Source of the DNA: Candidatus Curtissbacteria bacterium RIFCSPLOWO2_02_41_11
GTDB taxonomy: Bacteria > Patescibacteriota > Microgenomatia > Curtissbacterales > GWA2-41-24
Assembly: GCA_001775055.1 (NCBI GenBank)
Contig: MFBU01000014.1
Location: 120,535 to 184,534, forward strand
Direction of reading: 5' to 3'
Length of the DNA: 64,000 bases
Positions 4,702 through 24,570 of this stretch are shown here, one piece after another. The notes under the pieces were generated by a model. That model was not told the DNA's origin and searched no databases. It saw only the letters and a program-made list of their open reading frames with translations. Each line of letters opens with the position of its first letter. The first letter of the stretch is position 1. The position numbers and the translations under genes were made by a program.

Positions 4702-4728
4702 ATTTTTGGTAAAATTTAAGTTCGATTT

Positions 4729-6037: not shown

Positions 6038-7390
6038 ATGAAGAAAGCAACTATTTTGGTAATTGACGGTGGCGGCCGGGGAGCGGTTCTTGTCGATAAA
6101 TATTGCCAAAGTCGCCATGTCACACAAGTCTTGGCAGTCCCTGGCAATGACCTGATGAAAAAGCTCTCTCAAAAGCCTGTCAATATTTTCCCCAAAATTA
6201 AGACAACTGACATTTTATCAATAATCAAAATTTGCCAAAGCGAAAAAGTCGATCTAGTTGATGTTGTTCAGGACGATGCTGTTGCGAAAGGAGTAGTCGA
6301 TGCTTTGCAAAATGAGGGAATTCGCGTCTTTGGTCCCACTAAGGCAGCTTCCCAAATCGAATGGGATAAAGCCTGGGCCCGCAATTTTATGAAAAAATTT
6401 AAAATCCCAGCTCCGGAATTTAAAATCTGCAAATCATCTCAAGAAGGCATCGATTTCATCAAATCGCAAAAACGAGGCGAGTGGTTTATCAAAACCTCAG
6501 GACTGGCTGCTGGCAAAGGTGCTTTATATGCTAAAGATAACCATCAAGCAATTCAAAAAATCAATCAAATGAAAGATTTTGGCAAGGCAGGCCAAACTTA
6601 TCTTATCGAAAAGTGTCTTGTCGGTGAAGAATTTTCCTCCTTTGCCATCGTTGACGGATCAAACTTTGTTCTTCTTGGCCATGCCCAAGACCACAAGCCG
6701 GTTTTTGACGGAGATTTAGGACCAAATACCGGAGGCATGGGTTGCTCGTCACCGCCAATGGCCATCACCAAAAAAATCGAAAAACAAATCAAAAACATTT
6801 TTAAAAAAACAACTGAAGGCTTGGTTAAAATTGGTCGTTCTTACAGGGGTATCCTTTACCTTGGTGGAATGATCGATAAAAACGGTATGGTTTATGTTAT
6901 TGAGTTTAATGCCCGCTGGGGCGATCCCGAGGCACAGGTGATTATTCCTTCAATCAAAAATGATTTTTACGAACTGGCAAATCAAGTTCTTGACGGGGGG
7001 ATTAAAAAAATTAAAATAAAGAAAGATAATTCTTATCGAATTGCAGTTACCGCTGCTTCTCGCGGTTATCCGTCTGATTATTCAAAAGTGATCGGTAAAC
7101 AAATTTTCGGTCTGGATCATCTTCTTAATCAATTCACTTCCTCTCGTCATCCTGAGAGAAGCGAAGGATCTTATAAAATCTTTGGCGCTGGTGTAAAAAT
7201 CCATAATAGTAAATATCTGGTAAACGGCGGTAGATTATTTTATGTGACGACAGCTGGCAAAAATGTTGCACAAGCCAGAAAAATAGCCTATAATGCTCTT
7301 TCTTTAGTCAATGTCGAAAGCGACAATTTACATTACCGCACCGACATCGGCTGGCGAGATTTAGAAAGATTCTATGGAAAGACATTTTAA
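6038..7390 (+). CDS. purD: phosphoribosylamine--glycine ligase (GAR synthetase)
   Basis: MKKATILVIDGGGRGAVL...AVPGN is the PurD N-terminus. It has the ATP-grasp core and a PurD C-domain. Contains an in-frame GC-rich insertion encoding SRHPERSEGS (see findings). Confidence 0.9.
   Translation: MKKATILVIDGGGRGAVLVDKYCQSRHVTQVLAVPGNDLMKKLSQKPVNIFPKIKTTDILSIIKICQSEKVDLVDVVQDDAVAKGVVDALQNEGIRVFGPTKAASQIEWDKAWARNFMKKFKIPAPEFKICKSSQEGIDFIKSQKRGEWFIKTSGLAAGKGALYAKDNHQAIQKINQMKDFGKAGQTYLIEKCLVGEEFSSFAIVDGSNFVLLGHAQDHKPVFDGDLGPNTGGMGCSSPPMAITKKIEKQIKNIFKKTTEGLVKIGRSYRGILYLGGMIDKNGMVYVIEFNARWGDPEAQVIIPSIKNDFYELANQVLDGGIKKIKIKKDNSYRIAVTAASRGYPSDYSKVIGKQIFGLDHLLNQFTSSRHPERSEGSYKIFGAGVKIHNSKYLVNGGRLFYVTTAGKNVAQARKIAYNALSLVNVESDNLHYRTDIGWRDLERFYGKTF
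7148..7170. repeat. GC-rich short element with core CCTGAG-N5-CGAAGGA, in-frame in purD
   Basis: tcatCCTGAGagaagCGAAGGAtc. Encodes RHPERSEGS, absent from canonical PurD alignments. Confidence 0.6.
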
Positions 7391-8566: not shown

Positions 8567-9517
8567 TTGATGTTAGATATAATTGGTATCGGTTCTGCAT
8601 TTGTTGATTACTTTTTCCGAACTGATGAGGATTTTTTAAAAAAGTATAACCTTAAACCCGAAGATGATTTTTTATTTGGAGAAAAGAAAATAAACCCCAA
8701 TACTATCTTCAGTCAGCTCAGACCAATTACCAAAAGCCCCGGCGGTATTGCTCTAAATACCATTGCAACTCTTGCAAAACTCGGTGTCAATGTTGGCTAT
8801 TATGGGGTAATCGGAAAGGATGAAAATGGAGATTTTTGGCTTAAAAATATCGGCAGAGTTGACACATCAAAAGTTAATACAGCCGGCAAGATGTCGATTT
8901 GCACCTGTCTTTTAACTCATCGAGGCAAACGAAGAACTTTTGTTTCCCAAGTCAATCCAAATGATTTTAATTTCCTAAAAAATCTTGATTATAACTATTT
9001 AAATAACGTCAAATTTATCCATTTGGGCCCGCTTATTCTAAACTCTAGAAAAGGTATCAAGCGTTCCATAAAATTAATAGAAAAAATTATCAAACCCAAA
9101 CTTAGTTTTTCACCCAGTATTTTATACATTGCCGAAGGATGGGAAAATTTACTCCCAATATTTAAAAAGACCTACATACTTTTCGTAAATCAAAAAGAAA
9201 TGAAATATCTGACTCATCAAAATCCAAAGTCTGGATCAAAAAAGCTTCTTAAATATGGTCCAAAAATCGTCGTCTGCACTTTGGCCGAAAAGGGAGCGCT
9301 GGTAACGACCTCCAATGATCAATTCCATTCCCCGCGAGTTGATGTAGCCAAAATTATCGATACCACCGGCGCAGGAGATGCCTTTGCCGCCGGTTTTCTC
9401 TATGGACTCATAAAGAACAAATCTCTAAAGTGGTCTGCAAATTTTGCCAATCAAATTGCTGCCAAAAGTCTGACAGATTTTGGGTTGCAATGGTTAAAGC
9501 CTGCCCACTTCAGTTAA
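8567..9517 (+). CDS. PfkB-family carbohydrate/nucleoside kinase (ribokinase/adenosine kinase-like)
   Basis: DTTGAGDAFAAGFLYGL is the PfkB signature 2, with a ribokinase-like fold pattern. Embedded in the purine cluster, which suggests nucleoside salvage. Confidence 0.7.
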   Translation: MMLDIIGIGSAFVDYFFRTDEDFLKKYNLKPEDDFLFGEKKINPNTIFSQLRPITKSPGGIALNTIATLAKLGVNVGYYGVIGKDENGDFWLKNIGRVDTSKVNTAGKMSICTCLLTHRGKRRTFVSQVNPNDFNFLKNLDYNYLNNVKFIHLGPLILNSRKGIKRSIKLIEKIIKPKLSFSPSILYIAEGWENLLPIFKKTYILFVNQKEMKYLTHQNPKSGSKKLLKYGPKIVVCTLAEKGALVTTSNDQFHSPRVDVAKIIDTTGAGDAFAAGFLYGLIKNKSLKWSANFANQIAAKSLTDFGLQWLKPAHFS

Positions 9518-9528
9518 AATAACCACAA

Positions 9529-12369
9529 ATGATTTATGAAGTAAGAATTGCTTCCAAAGAAAAAACTGACCCCAAGGGACAGAATTTACTGGCCGAAATT
9601 GAAAGAACGCTTGGTGTAAAAACCATTAAAAACATCCGTACTGCCAAAATTTATCGACTTGAGGGAATAAGCAAGTCCGACGCCAAAATATTTACCCAAA
9701 AAGTTTTATTTGAGCCAATAGATCAAAAGATGACTTTTAATCAGCCGATTTTTAAAGGTACTGATCATTTAGTTGAAGTTGCTTATAAACCCGGTGTAAT
9801 GAATCCGGAGGCTGGGTCACTTTTAAAGTCAGCAAAGGATATTGGTATTGATCTTTTAGCTGCAGATTCTTCTTGGGAGTACGCATTTTTTGGCAAATTT
9901 GCAAAAGATCAACTTCAGGCAATCATCAAAAGGCTTTTAGTTAATGAAACAGTCGAGCATGTCGTCGAAAAATCTCCTAAGACTCTTTTGATTTCTGGCC
10001 ATGCCGGTAAGATCCAAACTATTCCAATTAGAGGGCTTGATGACCGCCAGCTAATGGAACTTTCTCAAGATAAGCTCTTTTTAAATCTTGAAGAGATGAA
10101 AGTTATCCAAAATTATTTTGCAAAAATCGACCGCGATCCAACTGATTGCGAAGTTGAGGTTCTTGCCCAAACATGGAGTGAGCATTGCGTCCACAAAACT
10201 TTTAAAGCTAAGTTGATAATCGATGGTAAGGCCAAAAAGCCCTTGATTGAGAGAATTAAAGAAACAGCTAAGTTTAGTCAAAAATTCATTGTCTCAGCCT
10301 TTGTAGATAATTCCGGAGTGATTGATTTTTATAATGGTTGGGCAGTAAGCGGCAAAGTCGAAACCCACAATTCGCCTTCGGCCATTGAACCCTATGGTGG
10401 TGCTATGACCGGATCTGGCGGAGTTTTTCGCGATATTTTAGGTACCGGTCAAGGAGCCAAACCGATTATCTCAACCGACATTTTTTGTTTTGCACCGCCG
10501 AGTCTTCCTGCAAAGGATCTTCCCCCAGGTTGTCTGCCACCAGACTATCTTCTTCGCAAAGTTGTAGCCGGCGTGCGCGATTACGGTAATCGTGTTGGTA
10601 TTCCCACCAACAATGGTTCTATCCATTTTCATAACGATTTTCGAGCTAAACCAACTGTAGCTGTTGGATCATATGGTCTAATTCCCAAAAAACAAGCTAA
10701 CAAACGACGGCCCAAAAAGGGCGATTTAATTTTAACTATCGGCGGGGCAACCGGCCGAGACGGTATTCACGGTGCTACTTTTTCATCCGGTGAAATGACC
10801 GATAGAACCATTGAAGTCTCCGGCTCGGCGGTTCAAATCGGCAATGCCATTGAGGAAAAAAGAATTATCGACTGTGTTTTAGCTCTTCGTCAACAAAATC
10901 TGTTTCGTACTTTAACCGATTGCGGTGCCGGTGGATATTCATCGGCTATTGGCGAAATGGGCCAAAAAATTGGCGCTCGTGTTTATCTTGAAAAAGTTCC
11001 TCTCAAATACAGCGGCCTTTCGCCTTGGGAAATTTTTCTCTCTGAATCTCAGGAACGCATGGTTTTGGCAATTGCCCCAAAAAATCTTAAAAAAGTTCTA
11101 AAAATCTGCAAACTTTACAATGTGCAAAGTGCGATTTTGGGCAAGTTTGACGGTTCAAAAAGAATAAAAGTTACTTATGATGATCAATTGGTTTGTGACC
11201 TTTCTATGCAATTTTTGCATCATGGTTTGCCCCAGAGGCGAATGGTTGGCAAGACAATTGTCAAAATGATTCCAGATAAGCCCCCGAAACAACCAAAGGA
11301 CTTATCAGCCGTTTGGCTTAAAGTCATGAGTCACGGCAATGTGTGTTCCAAAGAGCCGATTGTAAGACAGTATGATCATAATGTTCAAGGAACCAATGCT
11401 TTACATCCCTTAGGTGGAGTTAACTTTGATGCGCCAAATGACGGAGCAGTTGTCAGACCGATTCTTAACAAACCATACGGCTTAGTAGTCACCCATGGTC
11501 TTAACCCGATTCTTAATCGAATTGATCCATATTGGGGTAGCATTTGGGCAACCTGCGAGGCAGTCTCCAATTTTGTGGCCATAGGCGGCGACCTTAAAAA
11601 TGCAGCCTTAATTGATAACTTTATTTGGCCATTTCCGGACGAAGAATCCTTAGCCGATTTAGATAAATCTGTCGATGCCTGTTGTGATATGGCCAAACTT
11701 TTGGATATGCCTTTTATCTCTGGTAAAGACAGTTTGTCGAGTACGTACCGTTATCCCGATGGTCGAGTTTTAAAAATCCCGCCGGTTCTTTTAATTTCTG
11801 TCTTTGGCAAAATCCCAGATGTTAAAAAAACTACAAGTTCTGATTTTAAGAAAGTTGGTTCAACAATAGTTCTTATCGGCAAACCGGATCTTAAAAATCT
11901 CGGCGGCTCGGTCTATTTTGATGTTGCCGGCGGTCAATCCTCATCCGTTCCTAAGATTAATCTTAAATCGCAAAAGGCAGTTTTAACATCAATTACCGCC
12001 GGAATCAGAAGTGGTCAAATCCTTGCCTGTCATGATATTTCCGAAGGCGGCCTGGCAGCAGCGATGGCCGAAATGTGTTTTGGAAGCGACTGCGGTGCAG
12101 AAATTGACTTGTCCTCCATAGCTTTAGCGAAGGAGGATCATCCTGATTTTATTCTCTTTTCCGAAACCGCCGGCACATTTTTGATAGAAGTTGCAAATCC
12201 AATAGTTGCCAAAAAACTTTTCGCCAAAGTTCCCCACGTGATTATTGGACAGACTATCAAAGAAAGATCAATCCGCGTAAATCTAGGTCCCAAAAATCTG
12301 TGTAATCTGCGCCTAGATCAACTCAAACAAGCCTGGCAGAAGCCGATGAAGGAGATATTCCATGATTAA
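9529..12369 (+). CDS. purL: phosphoribosylformylglycinamidine synthase, PurS-like domain fused to PurL (FGAM synthetase II)
   Basis: N-terminal 80 aa (IYEVRIASKEKTDPKGQNLLAEIERTLGVKTIKNIRTAKIYRLEG) match PurS (YKV.V.VK.SVLDPQG...L...G...V.R.GK..L). WSEHCVHKTFK, ETHNSPSAIEPYGGAMTGSGGVFRDILG, GRDGIHGATFSS and DISEGGL are PurL (small type) motifs. Confidence 0.9.
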   Translation: MIYEVRIASKEKTDPKGQNLLAEIERTLGVKTIKNIRTAKIYRLEGISKSDAKIFTQKVLFEPIDQKMTFNQPIFKGTDHLVEVAYKPGVMNPEAGSLLKSAKDIGIDLLAADSSWEYAFFGKFAKDQLQAIIKRLLVNETVEHVVEKSPKTLLISGHAGKIQTIPIRGLDDRQLMELSQDKLFLNLEEMKVIQNYFAKIDRDPTDCEVEVLAQTWSEHCVHKTFKAKLIIDGKAKKPLIERIKETAKFSQKFIVSAFVDNSGVIDFYNGWAVSGKVETHNSPSAIEPYGGAMTGSGGVFRDILGTGQGAKPIISTDIFCFAPPSLPAKDLPPGCLPPDYLLRKVVAGVRDYGNRVGIPTNNGSIHFHNDFRAKPTVAVGSYGLIPKKQANKRRPKKGDLILTIGGATGRDGIHGATFSSGEMTDRTIEVSGSAVQIGNAIEEKRIIDCVLALRQQNLFRTLTDCGAGGYSSAIGEMGQKIGARVYLEKVPLKYSGLSPWEIFLSESQERMVLAIAPKNLKKVLKICKLYNVQSAILGKFDGSKRIKVTYDDQLVCDLSMQFLHHGLPQRRMVGKTIVKMIPDKPPKQPKDLSAVWLKVMSHGNVCSKEPIVRQYDHNVQGTNALHPLGGVNFDAPNDGAVVRPILNKPYGLVVTHGLNPILNRIDPYWGSIWATCEAVSNFVAIGGDLKNAALIDNFIWPFPDEESLADLDKSVDACCDMAKLLDMPFISGKDSLSSTYRYPDGRVLKIPPVLLISVFGKIPDVKKTTSSDFKKVGSTIVLIGKPDLKNLGGSVYFDVAGGQSSSVPKINLKSQKAVLTSITAGIRSGQILACHDISEGGLAAAMAEMCFGSDCGAEIDLSSIALAKEDHPDFILFSETAGTFLIEVANPIVAKKLFAKVPHVIIGQTIKERSIRVNLGPKNLCNLRLDQLKQAWQKPMKEIFHD

Positions 12370-13141
12370 ACCAAAAGTCTGCATTCTTCGTACCGATGGT
12401 ACCAACTGTGACGAGGAGCTATTTTATGCTTTCGAAAAATTTGGATCCAGTCCACAATACGTCCATATAAATGAACTAAGGGCGAAAAGCAAAAAGCTAA
12501 AGGCGTTTCAAATTCTCGCTCTTCCCGGCGGTTTTGCTTACGGTGATGACGTTGCCTCCGGAAAAATATTGGCAGTTGAACTTGTTAGTTTCCTTAAGGA
12601 TCAATTGCAGGAATATATAATTAAGAAAGGATTAATCTTTGGGGTCTGCAATGGTTTTCAGGTTTTAGTTAGGACTGGATTGTTACCTTTTGGCAAGTTA
12701 GGGAAAATGGATGTAACACTAGCCCAAAACGAAAGCGGCCATTTCGAATGTCGCTGGGTAAATTTAAAAATTGAAACTAGCCGTTGTGTCTTTCTTGATG
12801 ATCATAAAAGACAGGTTAGTCAGTTAGCCGTTAATCACGGTGAGGGAAAATTTTTCGCTGACACCAAAACCATCAAAAAAATCGAAGACGAAAACTTGGT
12901 AGTTTTTCGATATGTTGACGAAGATGGCAAACAAACTCAACTCTATCCGCAAAATCCCAATGGATCCACAAATGCCATCGCCGGCATCTGTGATCCAACC
13001 GGCAGAATTTTAGGCTTGATGCCACACCCCGAAAAATTTGTAGATATCACCCAACACCCCAACTGGCGAAGAAAAAAATTTGATCCACCTCACGGAGCAT
13101 TTATTTTCGAGGAAATGATAAGATATGCTCAAAATTCCTAA
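12362..13141 (+). CDS. purQ: phosphoribosylformylglycinamidine synthase I, glutaminase subunit
   Basis: LALPGGFAYGDD, GVCNGFQVL (catalytic Cys) and MPHPE are class-I glutamine amidotransferase / PurQ motifs. Overlaps the purL stop. Confidence 0.85.
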   Translation: MIKPKVCILRTDGTNCDEELFYAFEKFGSSPQYVHINELRAKSKKLKAFQILALPGGFAYGDDVASGKILAVELVSFLKDQLQEYIIKKGLIFGVCNGFQVLVRTGLLPFGKLGKMDVTLAQNESGHFECRWVNLKIETSRCVFLDDHKRQVSQLAVNHGEGKFFADTKTIKKIEDENLVVFRYVDEDGKQTQLYPQNPNGSTNAIAGICDPTGRILGLMPHPEKFVDITQHPNWRRKKFDPPHGAFIFEEMIRYAQNS

Positions 13142-14242
13142 ATGAAAAAGATTACTTACGCCAAAGTTGGTGATAACTATTACACCAAAGACCCAATCAA
13201 AAAGTTAGCCCAAGTGGCCGCCCAAAAAACTGCCCAAAATCTTGCAAAATCTGGATTTTCAGAAATCGGCGACAGTCGTGGCGAATCGGCATTCGTTTGG
13301 AGACAGGGTGATGTCTTAATGGCTGCCGTTGTCGAAGGTTTAGGGACCAAAAATCTAGTTGCTGACGAAATGCGCAAAGTCTCTCATCAAACTTTTTATG
13401 ACGTGATTGGTCATGATACGGTTGCTTGTATCATCAACGATCTAGTAACAGTCGGCACCAAACCATTAGTCATCCATGCTTACTGGGCCATTGAGGATAA
13501 CAGTTGGCTATCCGACAAAAAACGAATGACTGATTTTATTACCGGCTGGAAAAAAGCTTGTGATTTTTCCGATGCGACTTGGGGCGGGGGAGAAACACCA
13601 ACCCTCAAAGGAGTTATTTGCAAGAACACTGTTGATCTAGGTGGATCTGCAATTGGCATTATTAGTCCTTCAAATAGATTAATCACTGATAATAAATTGG
13701 TTGCAGGTGATAGGATTTTATTTCTCAAAAGCAACGGAATAAATTGTAATGGTATTTCTTTGGCTCGAGCCGTAGCCCAAAAACTTCCCAAAGGTTATAC
13801 AACCAAATTATCAAATGGCCAAATGTTTGGAGAGGCGATTCTGACTAAAACGAACATTTATGCAAAACTTATTCAAGATCTCTTAGATGCAAAAATTGAT
13901 ATACATTACATCTCCAACATCACCGGTCATGGTCTTAGAAAAATAATGAGAGCAAGGGGAAACTTTACTTATATTATTGAGAAAATTTTTGATCCTCAAG
14001 AAGTTTTTCTCTTTATCCAAAAGCATGCTGGTCTTTCCGATTACGAAATGTACGAAACTTTTAACATGGGACAAGATTACGCCATTTTTCTCCCATCAGG
14101 GGATATTGCAAAAGCCCAAAAAATTATTATCCAAAATAAATTCCAATCAATCGACGCCGGTTATATCAAATCCGGCCCCCGCCAAGTCATCATCAAACCC
14201 AAAAACATTACCTTTAAATCCGAAACCCTCGATCTTCGATGA
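13142..14242 (+). CDS. purM: phosphoribosylformylglycinamidine cyclo-ligase (AIR synthetase)-like
   Basis: GGGETPTLKG (GGETAEMPG motif), ISNITGHGL and YEMYETFNMGQDYAIFLP (HEMYRTFNCGVGMIIALP) match PurM. The N-terminus is divergent. Confidence 0.65.
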   Translation: MKKITYAKVGDNYYTKDPIKKLAQVAAQKTAQNLAKSGFSEIGDSRGESAFVWRQGDVLMAAVVEGLGTKNLVADEMRKVSHQTFYDVIGHDTVACIINDLVTVGTKPLVIHAYWAIEDNSWLSDKKRMTDFITGWKKACDFSDATWGGGETPTLKGVICKNTVDLGGSAIGIISPSNRLITDNKLVAGDRILFLKSNGINCNGISLARAVAQKLPKGYTTKLSNGQMFGEAILTKTNIYAKLIQDLLDAKIDIHYISNITGHGLRKIMRARGNFTYIIEKIFDPQEVFLFIQKHAGLSDYEMYETFNMGQDYAIFLPSGDIAKAQKIIIQNKFQSIDAGYIKSGPRQVIIKPKNITFKSETLDLR

Positions 14243-14315: not shown

Positions 14316-14909
14316 GTGAGAAATTATTATCCCATTATCTCTTTAATCTTTACAAACTTAATTCCCATCTTCGGGATCCTATTTTTACAATGGAATCTAT
14401 TTCAGTTACTCTTTGTCTACTCTTTAGAAACCGCAATTATCGGCTTATTTTTTAACCTCAGAATGATTTTTTCAAAAATAATAACCAACCAGAATCAAGT
14501 TTTATCTTTATATAAAAGGATAGAAGGAACAATATTTGGAGACTTCGGACTTGTGGTATTTATAGTTGGCCACGCCACTTTTATTTACATTCTTTCAATT
14601 ACTGCCGAACAAAGACTAAATTTTTCAGATTATCTCTTTTTTCTCCCCCTTTTATTTATAAGCCATAGCATTTCTTTTTTCTTCAACTTTATACGAAGAA
14701 GAGAGTATAAGATTCCTGTCTCAGTTGGATTATTACTTCTTCAGCCTTATAAAAGAGTACTCATTATGCACTTAACAATTGTTATTGGGGGCATAATTAC
14801 TGTCTCATTGAGTAGTTATCTAGGTTTAGTTATCCCTTTAATTATTTTAAAAACCTTGTTAGATCTAATATTTCATTTAAAAGAACATAATTCTTACAAA
14901 ACTAACTAA
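14316..14909 (+). CDS. polytopic membrane protein, unknown function
   Basis: 197-aa ORF with 5-6 hydrophobic helices. No recognisable motif. Confidence 0.35.
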   Translation: MRNYYPIISLIFTNLIPIFGILFLQWNLFQLLFVYSLETAIIGLFFNLRMIFSKIITNQNQVLSLYKRIEGTIFGDFGLVVFIVGHATFIYILSITAEQRLNFSDYLFFLPLLFISHSISFFFNFIRRREYKIPVSVGLLLLQPYKRVLIMHLTIVIGGIITVSLSSYLGLVIPLIILKTLLDLIFHLKEHNSYKTN

Positions 14910-15023
14910 TCTCCAATCTACCCCTTGTGTGTAATATCCGATGTATCATAGTTCTAGTCATTCCAACATTCTTAAGAATATTAGAATGATTTTGATAGAT
15001 AAAATTAGGTTCTTTACTAATAG

Positions 15024-16120: not shown

Positions 16121-17134
16121 ATGGCGGCATCAAAAGGCTATAAAATCGCCACTTTAGGTTCTCACTCTGCTCTCCAAATCCTAAAAGGCGCAAAAGACGA
16201 AGGTTTTAAGACAATTTGTATCGTCACGCCTGATCGCCACCATCTCTACAGCCGATTTGCCTTCATCAATAAAATTATTAAGATTCCGACTTTTGCCGAT
16301 TTTCCCAAAATCGAAAAACAATTAATTGCCGATAACGCAATCGTTATTCCTCATGGTTCTTTTGTAGCTTATTTAGGTCTTAGCGAAAATAAAAATATGA
16401 AGGTTCCCTATTTTGGCAATAAGCAAGTTTTGGATTGGGAATCAGACAGAATGAAGCAAAGGGATTGGCTAATAGAAGCCAGCGTGCCGGTACCAAAAAG
16501 ATTTAAAAGGCAAGAGAAAATCGACAGACCAGTGATTATTAAATCGTATGGAGCCTCAGGCGGCCATGGTTATTTCTTCGCAAAAAACCAAAAGGAATTT
16601 GCATCCCGAATCAAAAATTTTAAAGCGAAAGATTTTATTATCCAGGAATATGTCATCGGAGTACCACTTTATATCCATTATTTTTATTCACCTCTTAACA
16701 AAAAATTAGAAATACTTTCGATCGATAAACGCTATGAAACTAATGTTGACTCCTTAGGGCGAATTCCTTCGCAGAATCAGCAAGGTCTTGGCATTGAACC
16801 CTCATTTGTGGTTGTTGGCAATATTCCCCTAACACTTCGCGAGTCACTTCTTTCCGAAGCATTTGAAATGGGCGAAAGAGTTGTTGCAACTTCAAAAAAA
16901 ATAATGGATGGGGGAATCTGGGGGCCGTTTTGTCTTGAAACGATTATTACACCAGAGCAGAAGTTTTCGATTATTGAAATTTCCTGTCGAATTGTTGCCG
17001 GAACCAATTTATTTATCGACAGTTCTCCATATGCCTCTCTATACTATGAAAAACCTGTTTCAACCGGCAGAAGAATCGCCATGGAGATCAAAGAGGCTAT
17101 TAAAAGAAACAAACTTGCCAGGATCTTAAACTAA
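16121..17134 (+). CDS. purP: 5-formaminoimidazole-4-carboxamide ribonucleotide synthetase (archaeal-type, formate-dependent)
   Basis: IATLGSHSALQILKGAKDEGFKTICI, IPHGSFVAY, FGN..L.WESDR, ATP-grasp core and IHYFYSPL. Matches PurP of methanogens along its whole length (about 340 aa). Confidence 0.85.
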   Translation: MAASKGYKIATLGSHSALQILKGAKDEGFKTICIVTPDRHHLYSRFAFINKIIKIPTFADFPKIEKQLIADNAIVIPHGSFVAYLGLSENKNMKVPYFGNKQVLDWESDRMKQRDWLIEASVPVPKRFKRQEKIDRPVIIKSYGASGGHGYFFAKNQKEFASRIKNFKAKDFIIQEYVIGVPLYIHYFYSPLNKKLEILSIDKRYETNVDSLGRIPSQNQQGLGIEPSFVVVGNIPLTLRESLLSEAFEMGERVVATSKKIMDGGIWGPFCLETIITPEQKFSIIEISCRIVAGTNLFIDSSPYASLYYEKPVSTGRRIAMEIKEAIKRNKLARILN

Positions 17135-18414
17135 TGAAAAATACCTCACTTAAAAGTTGGCAAGGCATTACCTGTGTGATTGGTCTTGACTGGGGTGATT
17201 CAGGTAAGGGGCGGTTGATTGATGATCTGTCCTCCCGCGCCGATATCGTTGCCCGCTATAGCGGTGGTTCAAATACCGGGCACACCGTCAAAAATAAATA
17301 CGGAAAATTTGCCATGCACATAATGCCCTCGGGTATTTTTAATCAAAAAGCTCAATGTTTAATCGGTCGGGGCGTTGCTTGCGATTTGGAATCTTTAATC
17401 GAAGATGAAATGGCCCAGCTCCAAAAAGCCGCTATCTCTTGGAAGAATTTAATTATTGATGAGCAGGCATCATTGACGATGCCTTGGCATAAACTTCGTG
17501 ATGGCTTACGCGAAGAATTCCGTTTAAAAAAAATTGGTACTACCAAGCGGGGTGTTGGCCCAACTTACGCCGACAGGATTGAAAGAGTCGGTTTAAGAAT
17601 TAAAGACCTCATGTCCTCTGATTTTAAAGACAAGCTTTTTGAAGAAGTCAAAATTCAGAATAAATTTTTTAATCTTAAACTTAACCCCACTCAAATCTAT
17701 AGAAGGTATCTAAAATTTTCCAAATTATTAAAACCTTACGTTGGCCAAACTATTCCGATTGTCAAAAATGCCCAAAATATGGGTAAAAATATTTTATTTG
17801 AAGGTACTCAAGGATCTCTTCTAGACGTCGATTTCGGAACTTACCCCTTTGTCACCTCCACTAATATTGGTGTTATCGGAATTTGGCGCAGTTTCAACCT
17901 TCATCCATCCGAGATTAACCACGTAATTGGGATATCCAAAGCCTACTCAACTAGAGTTGGCGCTGGTCCACAGCCGACAAAACTGGATGGAGAAAAAAGA
18001 CAAATCATTATCGAAAAAGGTCAGGAAATCGGTACAACTTCAGGCAGAACCCGCGACCCTGGATGGCTCGACTTAGTTATTATTAGAGCAGCAGCCGAGT
18101 TTAACAAACTCACTGCTTTGGCAATTACCAAACTTGATGTTTTGACTGGATTTAAAAAGATCAAAGTTTGTACTTCTTATAAAATCAATGACAAAACTGT
18201 TGAATATCTTTCCGGAGATGCCCAATTTTTGGCAAAGTGTCAACCAGTTTATAAAGAAGTTGATGGCTGGAGGGAAGATTTGTCAAAAATTCGCCAGTTT
18301 AAAAAGCTCCCTAAAAATGCCCAAAATTATATTAAGATAATTGAAAAATTGGTTGATGTTCCGGTAAAGTTTATATCAGTTGGGCCAAATAGGGGAGAAG
18401 TGATATACCTATGA
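17134..18414 (+). CDS. purA: adenylosuccinate synthetase
   Basis: GLDWGDSGKGRLID (GxQWGDEGKGK P-loop), GGSNTGHTV and GTTKRGVGPTYADR are PurA motifs. Confidence 0.9.
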   Translation: MKNTSLKSWQGITCVIGLDWGDSGKGRLIDDLSSRADIVARYSGGSNTGHTVKNKYGKFAMHIMPSGIFNQKAQCLIGRGVACDLESLIEDEMAQLQKAAISWKNLIIDEQASLTMPWHKLRDGLREEFRLKKIGTTKRGVGPTYADRIERVGLRIKDLMSSDFKDKLFEEVKIQNKFFNLKLNPTQIYRRYLKFSKLLKPYVGQTIPIVKNAQNMGKNILFEGTQGSLLDVDFGTYPFVTSTNIGVIGIWRSFNLHPSEINHVIGISKAYSTRVGAGPQPTKLDGEKRQIIIEKGQEIGTTSGRTRDPGWLDLVIIRAAAEFNKLTALAITKLDVLTGFKKIKVCTSYKINDKTVEYLSGDAQFLAKCQPVYKEVDGWREDLSKIRQFKKLPKNAQNYIKIIEKLVDVPVKFISVGPNRGEVIYL

Positions 18415-19589
18415 AAATCAAAAATCAACCCGTCCTTGACCGAGTCGAGACGAGGTCGGGAAAATCAAAAATCAAAAGTTATCAGGACCTTACAATCGCA
18501 ACAGTTGGGTCTCACTCTGCCCTTGATATTTGTCGCGGTGCCAAAGATGAAGGTTTTAAAACATTGGTTGTTGTTGAGAAAGGACGTGATCAAACCTATG
18601 TCAACTATTTTAAATCAGCCCGTCCTTCGACAAGCTCAGGACCTTCGGGTTGCGTCGATGAAGTTGTATATGTTGATAAATTTAAAGACATACTTTTGCC
18701 AAAAATCCAAAAAATCTTAAAAAATAAAAATTGTATTTTCATCCCTCACCGTTCATTTGAAGTCTATGTTAGCGATTATGATGCCATTGAAGATAAATTT
18801 GATGTCCCCATTTTTGGCAACCGCTATCTTTTGCGCTTTGAGGAAAGAAACGAAAAACCTAATCAGTACGATCTTTTAGAAAAGGCCGAAATAAGATATC
18901 CAAAAATATTTAAAGACCCTAAAGATATTAACACCATTGTTATAGTTAAAGTAAATGAAAAAGAAAGAAGGTTCGAAAGAGCTTTTTTCTTAGCAACTTC
19001 TCATGCGCGGTATAAATATGAGTCAGAAAGGCTAATCAAGGGTGGGGTTATTACTAAGATAGACCTTAATGCCGCTATTATCGAAGAATTTATTTTAGGT
19101 GTTCAAGTAAATTTTAACTTCTTCTATTCACCAATTAATCGTCGATTAGAGTTAGTTGGAACAGACACCAGAAGACAGACAGATTTAGAAGGAATTTTAA
19201 GGTTGCCTATTAACCAACAAGAGGAACTCTTTGAACTTAAAAGAATATATCCTCAATATGAAGAAGCAGGTCATATAGCAGTTACCACCTTGGAATCCAT
19301 GCTTGAGCCGGCTTTTGAAATTGGAGAAAAATTTGTAAAAGCCACAAAAGAAATGAAACCACCTGGTGTCATCGGTCCCTTTGGACTCCAATCGGTAATT
19401 ACCCCAGGCCCCCCAAAGAAAGAAATTGTCGTTTTTGACGTTTCACCCAGAATGCCCGGTTCGCCGGGGATTTCTAGCACCCCTTACAGCGGCTATCTTT
19501 ATGGGAAGAATATCAGCATGGGCAGGCGGGTTGCCATGGAAATTAAAAAAGCAGTCGCCATAAAGAGACTTTCAAAAATAGTCACATGA
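18411..19589 (+). CDS. purP: second PurP-family ATP-grasp paralog (FAICAR synthetase-like)
   Basis: IATVGSHSALDICRGAKDEGFKTLVVV, IPHRSFEVY, FGNRYLLRFEER, FYSPINRRLE, GPFGLQSV. Carries an extra GC-rich in-frame insert (SARPSTSSGPSGCVDEV) absent from paralog 1. Confidence 0.8.
   Translation: MKIKNQPVLDRVETRSGKSKIKSYQDLTIATVGSHSALDICRGAKDEGFKTLVVVEKGRDQTYVNYFKSARPSTSSGPSGCVDEVVYVDKFKDILLPKIQKILKNKNCIFIPHRSFEVYVSDYDAIEDKFDVPIFGNRYLLRFEERNEKPNQYDLLEKAEIRYPKIFKDPKDINTIVIVKVNEKERRFERAFFLATSHARYKYESERLIKGGVITKIDLNAAIIEEFILGVQVNFNFFYSPINRRLELVGTDTRRQTDLEGILRLPINQQEELFELKRIYPQYEEAGHIAVTTLESMLEPAFEIGEKFVKATKEMKPPGVIGPFGLQSVITPGPPKKEIVVFDVSPRMPGSPGISSTPYSGYLYGKNISMGRRVAMEIKKAVAIKRLSKIVT
18620..18660. 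repeat. same-family GC-rich element (reverse orientation: CGAAGG-t-CCTGAG-cttgt-CGAAGGA), in-frame in purP paralog 2
   Basis: Plus strand gTCCTTCGacaagCTCAGGaCCTTCGggttgcgtcg. Encodes SARPSTSSGPSGCVDEV, absent from paralog 1. Confidence 0.6.
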
Positions 19590-20986
19590 CGAATAACGAT
19601 ATACCTTTAAACCAGTTAACTGCGATTAGTCCCCTAGACGGGCGCTACCGTGACAAAACTAAGGAGCTTGCCGAATATGTTTCTGAGTACGCTTTAATTT
19701 CTACCAGATTTGAAATAGAGGCTAAATATTTGGTTGCTCTTTCAGATATTAAAGTTATCAGAAATTTAACCGCCAAAGAGAAAACAAAACTCAACTTGCT
19801 TGGTTCAAAGATTACCTTAGCTGATGCCGTGATGGTTAAGAAAATTGAGGAGGAAACCAGACACGATGTCAAAGCGCTGGAGCGGGCATTTCGCCAAATG
19901 GTTAAAGGCACAAGTCTAGCGGATATTACGGAAATGATTCACTTTGGGTTAACTTCCGAGGATGTTAACAATCTTGCTTATCGTCTGATGTTAAGAAGAG
20001 CAACTGATAATGTTTGTGTTCTGATTTTAGATGAATTGATCGATCAGCTCACAGAGCGGGCACAAAAATATCTCTCCATCCCAATGCTGGCACGGACTCA
20101 TGGGCAAGCGGCTGTACCAACAACCGTCGGTAAAGAACTGGCTGTTTTTGCCACAAGGTTAAATTGGCAAGTTTTAAAACTTAAAGAATATCAACTTACG
20201 GGAAAATTAACCGGTGCGGTTGGTAATTTTAACGCCCTACAACTTACTCACTCTACTGTTGATTGGCTGAAATTTTCACAAGAGTTCATCAAGCAGTTTA
20301 GTTTTAAGCCAAATTTGGTTACCACTCAAATAAACCCCTATGAGGATATAATTGAATTTTTTCAAATTTACACGCGAATTAATAGTATTATCATTGATTT
20401 TGCTCAAGATATCTGGCGCTATATTAGTGACGATTGGTTTGTCCAGGAGGTTAAAAAAGGAGAAATCGGTTCATCAACCATGCCTCAAAAAGTAAATCCG
20501 ATTGATTTTGAAAACGCTGAGGGTAATCTGACTTTAGCCAACGGAATTTTGGAAACTCTTTGTCGAAAGCTGGCTATTTCCCGTTTGCAGCGAGATCTAA
20601 CAGATAGCACTACTATTCGCAATATTGGTTCTGCCTTAGGTTACTCGCTTATCGGTTATAAAAGTATTTTAAGTGGCCTTGCCAGAATCCGCCCGAATGT
20701 CGAAAAACTTGAGAAAGATTTAAATCGCGATTGGTCAATTCTCGCAGAGGCTGTCCAAACTCTACTTCGAAAAGCCAAAGTATCTGATCCTTACTCACTT
20801 ATTTCCTCATTAACCCGCGGTGAACATATCAACGAAGAGAAGTGGCAAAAATGGATCAGGAGTTTGCCAATTAAAAACGACCTCAAAAGTACTCTTGCCA
20901 AACTAATGCCCTCGACTTATATTGGACTTGCCGAAGAAATTACCAAAAGAGCTGCCAAAGAAATTAAAGCATCAAGACATAAATGA
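19586..20986 (+). CDS. purB: adenylosuccinate lyase
   Basis: SPLDGRYRDKT N-terminal motif. Fumarate-lyase family signature region GSSTMPQKVNPIDFEN. Confidence 0.9.
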   Translation: MTNNDIPLNQLTAISPLDGRYRDKTKELAEYVSEYALISTRFEIEAKYLVALSDIKVIRNLTAKEKTKLNLLGSKITLADAVMVKKIEEETRHDVKALERAFRQMVKGTSLADITEMIHFGLTSEDVNNLAYRLMLRRATDNVCVLILDELIDQLTERAQKYLSIPMLARTHGQAAVPTTVGKELAVFATRLNWQVLKLKEYQLTGKLTGAVGNFNALQLTHSTVDWLKFSQEFIKQFSFKPNLVTTQINPYEDIIEFFQIYTRINSIIIDFAQDIWRYISDDWFVQEVKKGEIGSSTMPQKVNPIDFENAEGNLTLANGILETLCRKLAISRLQRDLTDSTTIRNIGSALGYSLIGYKSILSGLARIRPNVEKLEKDLNRDWSILAEAVQTLLRKAKVSDPYSLISSLTRGEHINEEKWQKWIRSLPIKNDLKSTLAKLMPSTYIGLAEEITKRAAKEIKASRHK

Positions 20987-21510
20987 CAAAACCGCAAGTT
21001 GGCATTATCATGGGCTCTGATTCGGATCTGCCAGTGATGACCGAGGCCACTAAAATCTTGGACGAGTTGGGGATAGAAAATGAAGTTTTGATTCTTTCCA
21101 CACACAGAGTGCCTGAGCAAACTGCCCGTTATGCCAGACAAGCTAAAGATCGCGGCCTCAAAGTTCTAATCGCCGGCGCCGGCGGAGCTGCAGCTTTACC
21201 TGGATCACTTGCCTCTCTTACCACGCTTCCCGTGATCGGTGTTCCAATCAAAACAAAATCAATGGAAGGGTTAGATTCGTTGCTTTCCATTGCCCAAATG
21301 CCACCCGGTGTTCCGGTTGCCACAGTTAGCGTCAATGGCGCCAAAAACGCTGGTATTTTGGCAGCTCAAATAATTGGAGTTTTCGATTCCGAAGTTGCTA
21401 AAAAAATTGCCGATTATAAAAAAAAACTAAAAAATGAAGTCTTGGCTAAAAATTTTCAATTACAAAAATTAGGTTGGCCTAAATATCTTAAACAGTTAAT
21501 GACTAAATGA
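20983..21510 (+). CDS. purE: N5-carboxyaminoimidazole ribonucleotide mutase / AIR carboxylase catalytic subunit
   Basis: VGIIMGSDSDLPVM ... IAGAGGAAALPG is the PurE signature. Confidence 0.9.
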   Translation: MTKPQVGIIMGSDSDLPVMTEATKILDELGIENEVLILSTHRVPEQTARYARQAKDRGLKVLIAGAGGAAALPGSLASLTTLPVIGVPIKTKSMEGLDSLLSIAQMPPGVPVATVSVNGAKNAGILAAQIIGVFDSEVAKKIADYKKKLKNEVLAKNFQLQKLGWPKYLKQLMTK

Positions 21511-22478
21511 TTGATCAAAAAACCATTACCAAAAATATTTCATCCGCTATCGATAAAATAAACTATTCCAAACTCGGTAAAAGGTATAGCGGAAAAGTGC
21601 GGGATTGGTACAAACAAGAGCATTTCAGAATTTTGATTGCCACAGATAGAATTTCCGCTTTTGATAGAGTTTTAGGACTTATTCCTTTCAGGGGTGCAGT
21701 CTTAAATAAACTTTCCCAATTTTGGTTTGAAAAAACGCGCGATATTGTTCCCAACCACATGATCGGGGTGATTGATCCAAATATCATGCTGGTGACCGAA
21801 TGCCAAGCCTTGCCCGTTGAGGTGGTAGTTCGTGGCTATATTACCGGTGTAACCAGCACCTCACTTTGGAGAAAGTACTCGGAAGGGGAACGCGTCATTT
21901 ACGGAATTAAATTCCCCGAAGGTTTAGTTAAAAATCAAAAGCTTAAGAATCCGCTAATTACGCCAACTACCCGTGGAACCGGTCCTAGCGGTCATGATGA
22001 GCCGATAACCGCTGCGGAAATTATTAAGAAAAAATTAGTGCCTTCCTCACTCTGGAAGCAGATCGAAAAAGTTGCCTACAAACTTTTTGAAAGAGGCAGT
22101 CAAATTTGTCAAAAAGCCGGTTTTATTTTAGCCGATACCAAGTACGAGTTCGGTTTAGATAAAAAAGGCCGCTTGACACTTATCGATGAAATTCACACTC
22201 CGGACTCAAGCCGGCTCTGGGTCAAAAAGACCTATCCTGCGCGTTTCAAAACAGGGGAAGAGGTTGAAAATTATGATAAGGAGTTTATGCGACTTTGGTT
22301 TGCCCAGCAGGGTTATATGGGAAGCGGTAAGCCACCCCAAATGCCTAGTGATTTAATTGTTAAAATAGCCCAGCGCTATATTGATGCATGCGAAAATATA
22401 ACAGGCGAAAAATTCGTCATTGATCTAACAATTCCTCCCAAACAAAGAATTTTAGAAAGTCTCTCAAAATTGATATAA
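21507..22478 (+). CDS. purC: phosphoribosylaminoimidazole-succinocarboxamide synthase (SAICAR synthetase, long form)
   Basis: YSGKVRDWY, ILIATDRISAFD, ADTKYEFG are PurC motifs. About 320 aa, the long (yeast-like) form. Confidence 0.9.
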   Translation: MIDQKTITKNISSAIDKINYSKLGKRYSGKVRDWYKQEHFRILIATDRISAFDRVLGLIPFRGAVLNKLSQFWFEKTRDIVPNHMIGVIDPNIMLVTECQALPVEVVVRGYITGVTSTSLWRKYSEGERVIYGIKFPEGLVKNQKLKNPLITPTTRGTGPSGHDEPITAAEIIKKKLVPSSLWKQIEKVAYKLFERGSQICQKAGFILADTKYEFGLDKKGRLTLIDEIHTPDSSRLWVKKTYPARFKTGEEVENYDKEFMRLWFAQQGYMGSGKPPQMPSDLIVKIAQRYIDACENITGEKFVIDLTIPPKQRILESLSKLI

Positions 22479-22484
22479 TGCCTC

Positions 22485-24026
22485 ATGGTTGCAGTCATTA
22501 ACTTCGGTGGGCAGTACGCTCATCTTATTGCCAGAAGAATTAGGGAACTTGGCGTAAAAAGTGAACTGATTAGTCCCGATAGTAATATTTCTACTGTAAA
22601 AAAATTAGCCCCTCAAGCTCTAATTTTATCTGGGAGTCCTTTCTCCTGCTATGAAAAAAATGCCCCAAAGGTAGATCTTAAAATCTATGAGCTTGGTCTG
22701 CCGATACTTGGTATTTGCTATGGTCAGCAATTGATGGCCGTACAACTTGGTGGTCAAGTTTCGTCCCATTCCTCAAAACAATTTGGCAGGGAACTTCTGA
22801 AAATTACAACGTCGGCCCTATTTGAGAATCTTAAAAGTTCGCAAACGGTTTGGTTCTCTCATGGCGATCAAGTCGACAGACTTCCCACAGGTTTTAAAAT
22901 AATTGCTTCAAGTAAAAATGCCAAGATTGCCGGCATGGAAGATTCACAAAGGCGATTTTATGGAATCCAATTTCATCCTGAGGTAACCCATACACCGAAT
23001 GGTGAGGTAATCCTATCGAACTTTCTTTTTAAAATTGCCAAGGCCAAAAAAGATTGGAATCTAAAATCTCTCAAGGAAGACATAGTTAATAACTTAATAA
23101 AGAAAATTAAAAATCAAAAAGTAGTGATGGCTCTGTCCGGCGGAGTTGATTCATTGGTTGCCGCTACCTTGTTGAAGGAAGCAATCGGCGATAATTTGTT
23201 TTTAGTTTTTATCGATACTGGGCTACTTCGCAAATATGATCTTGAAGATCTGGAAAATGTTGTTAAAAGTGTCAATTTCAAAAACCTGCCTGCCGGCAGG
23301 CAGGGATTCAGAATAGTTAACTCGCAAAGTCGTTTTCTTAAAATTCTCCAACGCGTCAATGATCCTGAAGAAAAACGAAAAGTTATTGCCAAACTTTATT
23401 TTGCGATCCTAGAGGAAGAGGCCAAAAAAATCGGCAATGTGACTTTTTTGGCCCAAGGCACAATTTATCCAGATCGAATCGAATCAGCAAAGCCTTCCAA
23501 ACATGCCGACAAAATCAAAAGCCATCACAATGTTACCTTGCCGAAAGGTCTTAAATTAAAAATAATTGAGCCTTTGGGGGAATTTTACAAAGACGAGGTC
23601 AGAAAATTGGGTAAAATCTTAAGAATTCCACAAGAATTCTTAAACCGCCATCCGTTTCCAGGACCTGGCCTAGCGATTAGGATTTTAGGAGAAGTGACTG
23701 AAGATCGACTCAAGATTCTAAGGGAGGCTGATGCTATCTTTATTGAGGAGTTAAAGAAAGCAGGTATATATAATAAGGTAGGACAAGCATTGGCTGCGCT
23801 TTTACCTGTTAAATCGGTTGGCGTAATGGGTGACGCACGTACTTATTCATATATCATCGCTTTAAGATCGGTAGATACTGTCGATTTTATGACCGCCGAC
23901 TGGTCAAAAATTCCAAGCGATGTCATGGAGAAAGTCTCATCACGAATTGTCAATGAAGTACGAGGAGTCAACCGTGTCGTCTACGATATCACTCAAAAAC
24001 CTCCGGCCACCATTGAATATGAGTAA
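22485..24026 (+). CDS. guaA: GMP synthase (glutamine-hydrolysing)
   Basis: GATase domain with ICYGQQ (catalytic Cys). PP-loop ALSGGVDS. C-terminal GMP synthase dimerisation domain. Contains a 27-nt GC-rich palindromic insert encoding NLPAGRQG. Confidence 0.9.
   Translation: MVAVINFGGQYAHLIARRIRELGVKSELISPDSNISTVKKLAPQALILSGSPFSCYEKNAPKVDLKIYELGLPILGICYGQQLMAVQLGGQVSSHSSKQFGRELLKITTSALFENLKSSQTVWFSHGDQVDRLPTGFKIIASSKNAKIAGMEDSQRRFYGIQFHPEVTHTPNGEVILSNFLFKIAKAKKDWNLKSLKEDIVNNLIKKIKNQKVVMALSGGVDSLVAATLLKEAIGDNLFLVFIDTGLLRKYDLEDLENVVKSVNFKNLPAGRQGFRIVNSQSRFLKILQRVNDPEEKRKVIAKLYFAILEEEAKKIGNVTFLAQGTIYPDRIESAKPSKHADKIKSHHNVTLPKGLKLKIIEPLGEFYKDEVRKLGKILRIPQEFLNRHPFPGPGLAIRILGEVTEDRLKILREADAIFIEELKKAGIYNKVGQALAALLPVKSVGVMGDARTYSYIIALRSVDTVDFMTADWSKIPSDVMEKVSSRIVNEVRGVNRVVYDITQKPPATIEYE
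23279..23305. repeat. 27-nt GC-rich element with perfect 20-bp palindrome CCTGCCTGCCGGCAGGCAGG, inserted in-frame in guaA (copy 1 of 2)
   Basis: caaaaacctgcctgccggcaggcaggg. An identical 27-mer is at 48863-48889. Confidence 0.9.
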
Positions 24027-24570
24027 GCTGAAGCTTTCAGATCTAGTTGTGGTCACTACCAATAAGGATAAGCTTGCCGAAATTAATGAAATCTTAGGAA
24101 CCAATCACAAAGTTTCCAAAAACGATATTACCGAGATTCAGTCATTGGATCTTGATGAGGTGATTGCCGATAAAGCCAAAAAAGCTTATCAGATTGTTAA
24201 AAAGCCGGTTTTGGTGGAAGATGTAAGTCTGGAAATTAAATCACTTAGCGGATTGCCCGGGCCATTGGTTAAGTTTTTTCTCAAGACTCTTGGTACCGAA
24301 GGAACCGTCAGACTAGTTAAAGGCAAAGATACGACTACTCGCGCGATCTGTGCCTTGGCTATTTATGATGGTAAAATCCTTAAAATTTTTAGAGGTTTCT
24401 CTTATGGAACATTATCAGAAGAAAACAGAGGAAGTTTTGGTTTTGGTTTTGACAAAGTCTTTATTCCCAAAGGTTACACTCAAACTTTTGCCCAAATGCC
24501 GCCATCTTTAAAAAATCAAATTTCCCACCGTGCCAAAGCCTTAATGCAAGTCAAAAAGTATCTTGGCTGA
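24019..24570 (+). CDS. rdgB: non-canonical purine NTP pyrophosphatase (Ham1/RdgB/ITPase family)
   Basis: The ORF begins at 23920 inside guaA in another frame. Start is placed at ATG 24019 (MSKLKLSDLVVVTTNKDKLAEINEIL, matching the LVLATGNKGKLRE Ham1 N-terminus). Length is about 183 aa. Confidence 0.75.
   Translation: MSKLKLSDLVVVTTNKDKLAEINEILGTNHKVSKNDITEIQSLDLDEVIADKAKKAYQIVKKPVLVEDVSLEIKSLSGLPGPLVKFFLKTLGTEGTVRLVKGKDTTTRAICALAIYDGKILKIFRGFSYGTLSEENRGSFGFGFDKVFIPKGYTQTFAQMPPSLKNQISHRAKALMQVKKYLG

Follow-up and report, generated by a model that had tools for sequence, protein, structure and literature searches.

A 64,000-nucleotide stretch of the genome of Candidatus Curtissbacteria bacterium RIFCSPLOWO2_02_41_11 (contig MFBU01000014.1), referred to here as the window, holds a purine cluster of about 19 kb, with all genes in one direction, in which two genes of the PurP family, PurP_A and PurP_B, lie on either side of purA. 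Judged by diagnostic sequence features, PurP_A is a PurP II protein (cluster Ib, PF1517-like) and PurP_B a PurP III protein (cluster II, PF0421-like). Together they represent, in a bacterium, the PurP II/III pair known from archaea, which Microgenomates acquired long ago and now carry widely; the operon that holds them here appears to have lost purH. These bacterial orthologues of PurP II and PurP III probably carry out jointly the formate- and ATP-dependent formylation of 5-aminoimidazole-4-carboxamide ribonucleotide (AICAR).

Both proteins contain the two Pfam domains of the PurP family at scores above the gathering thresholds: DUF1246 (143.8 bits, E 3e-42 in PurP_A; 146.6 bits, E 4e-43 in PurP_B) and DUF1297 (234.7 bits, E 8e-70 and 212.2 bits, E 6e-63, respectively). 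PurP_A aligns end to end with the solved structure of Pyrococcus furiosus PF1517 (2r84; 363 bits, E 1e-107), and PurP_B aligns end to end with 2r7k (238 bits, E 1e-69), its match to 2r84 scoring 163 bits. Together with the canonical purA between them (NF002223, 469.8 bits against a cut-off of 402), these matches bear out the original prediction, made by reading the sequence, that two PurP genes flank purA in this cluster; its estimate of about 35% identity between them is close to the 33% calculated over 366 aligned positions (E 6e-62), and its view that the family is otherwise typical of archaea is upheld. The family is a small one: clustering at 50% identity leaves 615 representatives from 1.84 billion proteins. 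PurP_B additionally shows a low-complexity insertion at about residues 68–80 (SARPSTSSGPSGC) and an N-terminal extension of about 25 residues, neither of which is found in most of its homologues (360–375 residues).

Relatives were collected by a scan of one genome per species with a 10-sequence PurP III alignment, which replaced a 23-sequence alignment too diverse for this purpose. The scan recovered at least 599 PurP III-like genes, and all counts of loci, gene order and co-occurrence given here rest on the best 80 of these matches, which comprise 52 bacterial and 28 archaeal loci (individual loci are denoted by L numbers). Residues were compared in an alignment of 152 sequences consisting of the window pair, MJ0136, PF1517 and every PurP gene in the 80 loci, all from species-representative genomes; numbering follows MJ0136, and ligand contacts and subgroup diagnostics are taken from PMC3261824. 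The residues that contact the formyl group (His27 and Arg314) and the 5′-phosphate (Ser94 and Ser266) are present in both PurP_A and PurP_B. At least 94% of the 152 sequences retain His27, Arg314 and Ser266; Ser94 is the exception, a tyrosine taking its place in 13 of the 28 archaeal PurP III proteins.

The PurP family has been divided into four groups, I–IV (PMC6486802; PMC3261824). Group I includes MJ0136, the sole PurP with proven activity as a synthetase of FAICAR (5-formamidoimidazole-4-carboxamide ribonucleotide), while neither PF1517 (group II, cluster Ib) nor PF0421 (group III, cluster II) shows FAICAR synthetase activity alone in vitro (PMC6486802). Group IV, represented by TK0431, is uncharacterised (PMC6486802; PMC3261824). 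Groups II and III strictly co-occur in archaea, in 61 taxa (PMC6486802). According to Brown et al., the AICAR carboxamide is contacted by residue 258, an Asn in cluster I and invariably a His in cluster II, and the P-loop at positions 161–165 has the form (K/R)GG(K/R)G in cluster I, that of cluster II being two residues longer and poor in glycine (PMC3261824). PurP_A displays Asn at position 258 (GNIP) and a glycine-rich loop, GASGGHG, which in its bacterial relatives mostly reads AGGKG. PurP_B displays His258 (AGHIA) and the basic, glycine-poor loop NEKERRFERA, which aligns with PGARGG--RG of MJ0136 and is two residues longer. Residue 258 in both proteins, the longer loop of PurP_B and the glycine-rich loop of PurP_A, which has the length and the glycines of the cluster I form but neither of its basic residues, lead to the assignment of PurP_A to PurP II and of PurP_B to PurP III; the latter is placed by the published signatures, by a tree position apart from groups I and II and by archaeal relatives at 52–57% identity. 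The signatures are invariant in both groups: all 70 PurP_A-like proteins (51 bacterial and 19 archaeal) have Asn258 and a GAxGGxG loop, and all 81 PurP_B-like proteins (53 bacterial and 28 archaeal) have His258 and the ExxRx(F/Y)ER loop with its two extra residues.

A column-by-column comparison of the two groups reveals 37 positions that are fixed and identical in both and 21 that are fixed but different, among them G93R, the three loop glycines, H210N, Y229R, E230Q, N258H, E310D and the change of GGTN to GSPG (PurP_A to PurP_B). This combination of shared and contrasting fixed columns implies that both proteins are under strong and distinct constraint; by this measure PurP III is a specialised protein and neither copy is decaying. 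The two genes, described earlier as paralogs, did not originate as paralogs within this lineage: residue 258 and the length of the loop identify them as orthologues of the ancient archaeal PurP II and PurP III, and they are linked in 51 of the 52 bacterial loci.

Among 1,266 complete bacterial genomes surveyed in 2019 no purP was found (PMC6486802), and our literature search found no description of a bacterial PurP, although NCBI annotates such proteins by name; relatives of PurP_B are labelled there only as ‘DUF1297 domain-containing protein'. Microgenomates, with named Curtiss-, Davies-, Gottesman-, Roizman-, Woese- and Levybacteria, are the mainstay of the 52 bacterial loci. Anaerolineae are represented by three loci, one of which lies on a 674-kb contig of Candidatus Epilinea brevis, and Dependentiae and Gracilibacteria by one locus each. 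Among the matches listed, the closest non-bacterial relatives of PurP_B are proteins of DPANN and other archaea at 52–57% identity, and archaeal relatives span Woese-, Micr-, Nano- and Nanohaloarchaeota, Altiarchaeales, Methanosarcinales, Thermoplasmatota and Nitrososphaeria. Many bins titled ‘uncultured Gammaproteobacteria' (L015, L017, L019, L021, L022, L025, L026, L029, L030 and others; GTDB records CAY*/CAZ*) are Microgenomates-like in the genes they hold and in sequence identity, and L056 and L066, titled ‘uncultured Methanosarcinales', are also among the bins with Microgenomates-like or Woesearchaeota-like pur operons. These titles look like placeholder taxonomy, as the bins cluster with Microgenomates or Woesearchaeota in both PurP trees. 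L034, titled Methylomirabilota, groups with Levybacteria and may be mis-binned.

A phylogeny of the PurP family was built as midpoint-rooted neighbour-joining trees with representatives of clusters at 50% identity. PurP_A-like and PurP_B-like sequences separate with 100% bootstrap support, with archaea on each side of the split. The bacterial PurP_A clade (87%) is nested inside archaeal PurP II (97%), where PurP_A groups with PF1517, and its sister is a group made up of PF1517 and DPANN sequences. This topology and the sequence identities fit an archaeal origin by horizontal transfer, an old one, spread widely over Microgenomates, Anaerolineae and Dependentiae; its direction would have been from archaea to bacteria. 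The pair would have arisen through an ancient duplication in archaea. At least one transfer, of both genes together as a linked cassette, would have reached an ancestor of Microgenomates, with separate transfers into Anaerolineae, Dependentiae and Gracilibacteria being probable. Transfer from archaea, one of the options in the original prediction, is retained, while the accompanying claim that the late purine steps of this lineage are folate-independent is overstated, because the window encodes a PurN with intact catalytic residues, a 5-formyl-tetrahydrofolate (THF) cyclo-ligase is encoded nearby, just outside the window, and FolD and purH occur in the operons of relatives.

Gene order was compared by simple open reading frame (ORF) calls on the loci followed by blastp against the window proteins. 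All bacterial loci but one (51 of 52) hold both PurP genes, invariably with A ahead of B; the remaining locus, L021, is cut off by a contig edge. They are directly adjacent in 40 of the 52; purA alone lies between them in eight (the Curtissbacteria type, as in the window), purH and purA in two (L022 and L054) and purH in one (L034). Thus, purA separates the two genes, with or without purH, in 10 of the 52 loci, and the flanking of purA, correct for the window, is a derived local arrangement and not the general layout. In Daviesbacteria the order is PurP_A-PurP_B-purH-purB-purE-purC-prs. Contig JAQUSJ010000001.1 (Daviesbacteria) thus has purH in the operon, whereas the 1.22-Mb Gottesmanbacteria contig CAWBPL010000002.1 has an operon without it. 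Roizman-, Gottesman- and Woesebacteria have an operon of the form purF-purN-purD-purSL-purQ-PurP_A-PurP_B-purB-(purK)-purE-purC-purM, exemplified by L031 on a 1.22-Mb contig, in which the pair occupies the purH slot; this operon holds genes for steps 1–8, and the pair is the only candidate there for steps 9 and 10. In the trees of both genes the sister of the Curtissbacteria clade is L022, which has the order PurP_A-purH-purA-PurP_B, for which reason the window layout is read as the same order minus purH: PurP_A-purA-PurP_B would derive from PurP_A-purH-purA-PurP_B by loss of purH. Among the archaeal loci the two genes are directly adjacent in 16 of 28, in the order B-A in 12 and A-B in 4. The A-B loci are mainly from DPANN and have purB and guaA as neighbours, as in the bacterial layout, a likeness that fits the transfer of an operon fragment.

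FolD lies directly after PurP_B in some Microgenomates pur operons (L019, L027 and L041; the L019 features are at 4026–4871 and 6387–7904), and in L019 an archaeal-type phosphoenolpyruvate carboxylase (PF14010) lies between purC and purM. An apparent PurP_B-PurB fusion in L041 was rejected as an artefact of a masked run of N, and long ‘fusions' in L061, L071 and L084 as over-extended ORFs from the simple ORF caller.

Within the 64-kb window, Pfam scans of every sizeable ORF detect no purH, purO, purJ, purT, purK, purF, prs or guaB, and tblastn of the window with PurH, PurF, PurK, Prs and FolD from related loci in candidate phyla radiation (CPR) bacteria gives no match. About 10 kb past each end of the window, bringing the total covered to about 83 kb, are likewise without purH, purO, purJ, purT, purK and purF, so that the reported lack of purH, purT and purK in the cluster extends well beyond it. 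PurP_A itself scores only 22 bits against the PurK model TIGR01161 (cut-off 318). A protein search with the PurH of L022 (best 120 matches) was uninformative, the known PurH proteins of L018, L029 and L054 not being recognisable in it.

The strict linkage of the two genes, the AICAR and formyl contacts conserved in both proteins, the position between purQ/purM and purB, in the purH slot, and the inactivity of the lone P. furiosus proteins point together to joint action on AICAR. PurP_A and PurP_B would act together on AICAR, either as a hetero-oligomer, as proposed for groups II and III by Cruz et al., who envisage a heterohexamer made of one trimer of each (PMC6486802), or as two tightly coupled enzymes, and would formylate it with formate and ATP via a formyl-phosphate intermediate. 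The pair would thereby replace the transformylase half of PurH, apparently lost from this operon. AICAR is the putative substrate, and both proteins would be needed. Several observations weigh against joint formylation of AICAR or against its evolutionary setting. No activity has been demonstrated for any PurP II or PurP III protein (PMC6486802). The SGGHG loop of PurP_A keeps the length and the glycines of (K/R)GG(K/R)G but lacks both basic residues, and the glycine-rich loop is entirely absent in PurP_B. Scores against the NCBIfam equivalog models (formate--phosphoribosylaminoimidazolecarboxamide ligase, PRK13278 sub-models) fall well short, the best for PurP_A being 403.6 bits (cut-off 580) and for PurP_B 290.8 bits (cut-off 556), the latter below every NCBIfam cut-off. 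Full-length purH (MGS-like and AICARFT_IMPCHas domains) lies beside or between the pair in 17 of the 52 bacterial loci, which means that the pair is not simply a purH replacement, and a purH elsewhere in the genome, beyond the inspected 83 kb, is possible. Finally, the deep nodes of PurP III have bootstrap values below 20, making the donor and the number of transfers uncertain.

An extension of this proposal, which it does not exclude, is that the pair performs both last steps and replaces PurH as a whole, PurP_A making FAICAR and PurP_B, or the complex, cyclising it to inosine monophosphate (IMP). PurP III would then be the IMP cyclohydrolase that is ‘missing' in Crenarchaeota, Thaumarchaeota and Pyrococcus. 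A cyclohydrolase role for one copy, which the original prediction also raised, is a speculation already published for archaea (PMC3261824), and we consider it a serious though doubtful possibility. It would explain the apparent deletion of purH in Curtissbacteria, where the gene is missing from the PurP_A–purA junction of the window and of eight related loci and kept in their sister L022, as well as the apparently repeated disappearance of purH where the pair is retained. In L031 the pair alone fills the purH slot of a complete purF-to-purM operon, purH, purO and purJ all being absent from 10 kb to each side, and L035, L037–L039, L042–L048 and L050 are similar. The residues of PurP III also agree with such a role: an invariant His replaces Asn258 at the carboxamide contact, His27 and Arg314 are kept and the glycine loop that covers ATP is replaced, changes expected for FAICAR binding and for attack of the carboxamide on the formyl group. 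Archaea with groups II and III are often without a known cyclohydrolase, and FAICAR does not cyclise by itself at 60 °C (PMC3261824; PMC6797443). The phyletic pattern, however, is imperfect. Not only do the 17 bacterial operons have purH beside the pair, but Archaeoglobus, Methanosarcinales and Thermococcus kodakarensis possess the pair plus purH, purJ or purO, and AF1811 and TK0430 are proven cyclohydrolases in pair-bearing archaea. PurP_B, moreover, still has the ATP-grasp Lys156 and the EE hinge, with an acidic residue at position 310, so that a loss of ATP use is not evident, and absence of purH from a 20-kb locus does not equal absence from the genome. The inspection of only about 83 kb of the genome leaves room for the notion that the pair is redundant, a canonical purH elsewhere carrying out steps 9 and 10 and the pair serving as an accessory, formate-salvaging bypass. 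The purH genes of the 17 related operons and the presence of folate enzymes (PurN and the 5-formyl-THF cyclo-ligase) are in keeping with redundancy, but it is rendered unlikely by the strong constraint on both genes, which are universally kept together across Microgenomates, by the position of purH inside this operon in relatives and its apparently precise deletion here, and by the lack of any purH trace in the window by tblastn.

Two further explanations fare worse. One copy might serve another ATP-grasp step, as a PurK-like N5-carboxyaminoimidazole ribonucleotide synthetase or a PurT-like, formate-dependent formylase of glycinamide ribonucleotide (GAR). The window has neither purK nor purT, its purE is class-I-like, and aminoimidazole ribonucleotide differs from AICAR only in the carboxamide contacted by residue 258, which is altered in PurP III. 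Against this, purK accompanies both PurP genes in 13 of the 52 bacterial operons, most Crenarchaeota have a functional purK in addition to PurP II and III (PMC3261824), and class I PurE without PurK is common at high CO2; PurP III as a PurK analogue was rejected on the co-occurrence with purK. A formylation at the GAR level, suggested as one option in the original prediction, finds no support and is unnecessary, the operon encoding a PurN with intact catalytic residues, so that PurT is not needed. Such alternative ATP-grasp roles are therefore highly improbable. It is scarcely credible, lastly, that the two genes stem from a lineage-specific duplication of a single transferred purP, one copy drifting or newly functional, despite their homology, their 33% identity and their proximity in one operon: each is much closer to archaeal proteins (PurP_A with 363 bits to PF1517, PurP_B with 52–57% identity) than to the other, and local duplication is refuted by the group signatures shared with archaea and by the fully supported A/B split with archaea on both sides.

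The features of the window discussed here are listed in Table 1. Stop and start codons overlap from PurP_A through purC, which indicates one translationally coupled operon; as a whole it is read as PurP_A-purA-PurP_B-purB-purE-purC-guaA. Scans for promoters and terminators gave hits at chance level only, and the Rfam scan found only one tRNA.

Table 1. Features of the purine cluster and of the right end of the window, with positions in the window.
Feature	Position	Strand	Evidence or remark
purN-like GAR formyltransferase, folate-dependent, with internal insertion	5421..6035	+	Pfam Formyl_trans_N, E 5e-32
purD	6038..7390	+	GARS_N, GARS_A and GARS_C domains
HAD-like ORF, 396 aa	7374..8564	+	
PfkB kinase	8567..9517	+	closest structures adenosine-kinase-like and AIR-riboside-kinase
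purS-purL fusion	9529..12369	+	Pfam, NCBIfam
purQ	12362..13141	+	Pfam, NCBIfam
purM	13142..14242	+	Pfam, NCBIfam
DUF6498 membrane-like protein	14316..14909	+	
ORF of 87–94 aa	15024..15308	+	conserved in L012, L014 and L025
PolB-exonuclease/RNase H-like protein, 200 aa	15305..15907	+	
PurP_A, assigned to PurP II (cluster Ib), ATP-grasp, 337 aa	16121..17134	+	DUF1246 and DUF1297
purA, adenylosuccinate synthetase, 426 aa	17134..18414	+	Pfam PF00709, E 9e-148
PurP_B, assigned to PurP III (cluster II), 392 aa	18411..19589	+	DUF1246 and DUF1297
purB, adenylosuccinate lyase, E. coli type	19586..20986	+	Pfam Lyase_1 and ASL_C
purE, class-I-like	20983..21510	+	TIGR01162, 203.8 bits
purC, SAICAR synthetase	21507..22478	+	Pfam PF01259, E 2e-63
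guaA, GMP synthase	22485..24026	+	Pfam GATase and GMP_synt_C
Ham1/RdgB-type non-canonical purine NTP pyrophosphatase	24019..24570	+	Pfam PF01725, E 4e-43; start as in the L001 gene call
VWA-domain protein, 774 aa	59824..62148	-	
RimK-like ATP-grasp protein	62933..63925	-	

The PurN-like protein scores 123.8 bits against TIGR00639, under the cut-off of 150.1, and keeps the catalytic Asn, His and Asp (N-x-H and D), the N-x-H motif being separated from the Asp by an insertion of about 40 residues. The HAD-like and PfkB genes are interposed between purD and purSL and translationally coupled to both; other Curtissbacteria loci have purD directly followed by purSL, without these two genes. The C-terminal half of the HAD-like protein is weakly HAD/SerB-like, and its approximately 200 N-terminal residues match nothing. 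The two genes may form a nucleoside salvage or phosphatase module, which merits attention since purF is not in the cluster. Three unrelated ORFs, spanning 14316–15907 on the forward strand, break the cluster between purM and PurP_A. The purB of most relatives at the same operon position is of a different type, 26–30% identical to that of the window, whose type recurs only in L010 and L033; purB looks to have been replaced in place by a non-orthologous homologue. The motifs STHRVP and AGAGGAAALPG are recognisable in purE, which has Ala at the site of the E. coli loop His. In the related Curtissbacteria loci L020 and L025 a purK, lacking in the window, lies between purB and purE.

Elsewhere the window is plainly bacterial, encoding SecD/SecF, RecJ, a PBP5-type D-Ala-D-Ala carboxypeptidase and a class II CCA-adding enzyme. 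The guanine-cytosine content of the PurP genes (0.38–0.39) equals that of their surroundings, with no anomaly in the window, which argues against recent insertion. PurP_B is 100% identical to protein UT12_C0002G0041 of Candidatus Curtissbacteria bacterium GW2011_GWC2_38 (on aquifer-metagenome contigs as long as 430 kb). At the right end of the window the RimK-like gene adjoins the gene for the VWA-domain protein, and several ORFs without a family match lie near them.

The presence of the pair in bacteria means that the status of purP as an archaeal signature gene fails, as that of purO had already. What PurP II and PurP III do, and which protein is the crenarchaeal IMP cyclohydrolase, are questions dating from 2008–2011, for which the bacterial operons provide independent comparative evidence, with the pair in the purH slot and purH gained or lost right beside it. 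CPR bacteria with the pair offer a handy test case for this unsolved step of archaeal purine synthesis: their proteins are mesophilic and come from a bacterial codon and expression background, which makes complementation in E. coli easier than with hyperthermophile proteins that are inactive in vitro. The pair is also a further case of nucleotide-metabolism genes common to CPR bacteria and archaea, particularly DPANN.

Comparison with known systems places the pair close to its archaeal counterparts. The best solved relative of PurP_A is PF1517 of P. furiosus (PDB 2r84–2r87), with which it has in common Asn258, a glycine-rich loop and His27, Ser94, Ser266 and Arg314; PF1517 is always paired with a PurP III partner (PMC6486802), as PurP_A is with PurP_B. 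The two differ in the loop, KGGKG in PF1517 and SGGHG in PurP_A, and in that the host of PurP_A is a mesophilic CPR bacterium; PF1517 has no demonstrated activity. PurP_B resembles archaeal PurP III proteins (PF0421 and Archaeoglobus fulgidus AF0256) in His258, the longer glycine-poor loop, the linked cluster Ib gene and the pur neighbours, its cluster Ib partner being PurP_A, 1.3 kb upstream in the same operon, and differs from them by its bacterial host. MJ0136 of Methanocaldococcus jannaschii (PurP I, PDB 2r7k) shares the fold, the domain pair and the formyl and phosphate contacts with the window proteins, but works as a single gene with PurO, whereas PurP_A and PurP_B are of groups II and III, are paired and have no PurO in the window. 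Bacterial PurH shares the position in the pathway and, in relatives, lies directly beside or between the PurP genes, yet its fold is unrelated to PurP and it is folate-dependent. The purP(Ib)-purP(II)-purB clusters of Sulfolobales and Pyrobaculum, whose genomes have no known purH, purO or purJ (PMC3261824), resemble the window in that neighbouring genes of groups II and III are linked to purB; Sulfolobales have purB in divergent orientation, whereas the window genes are co-directional, with purA between the PurP genes.

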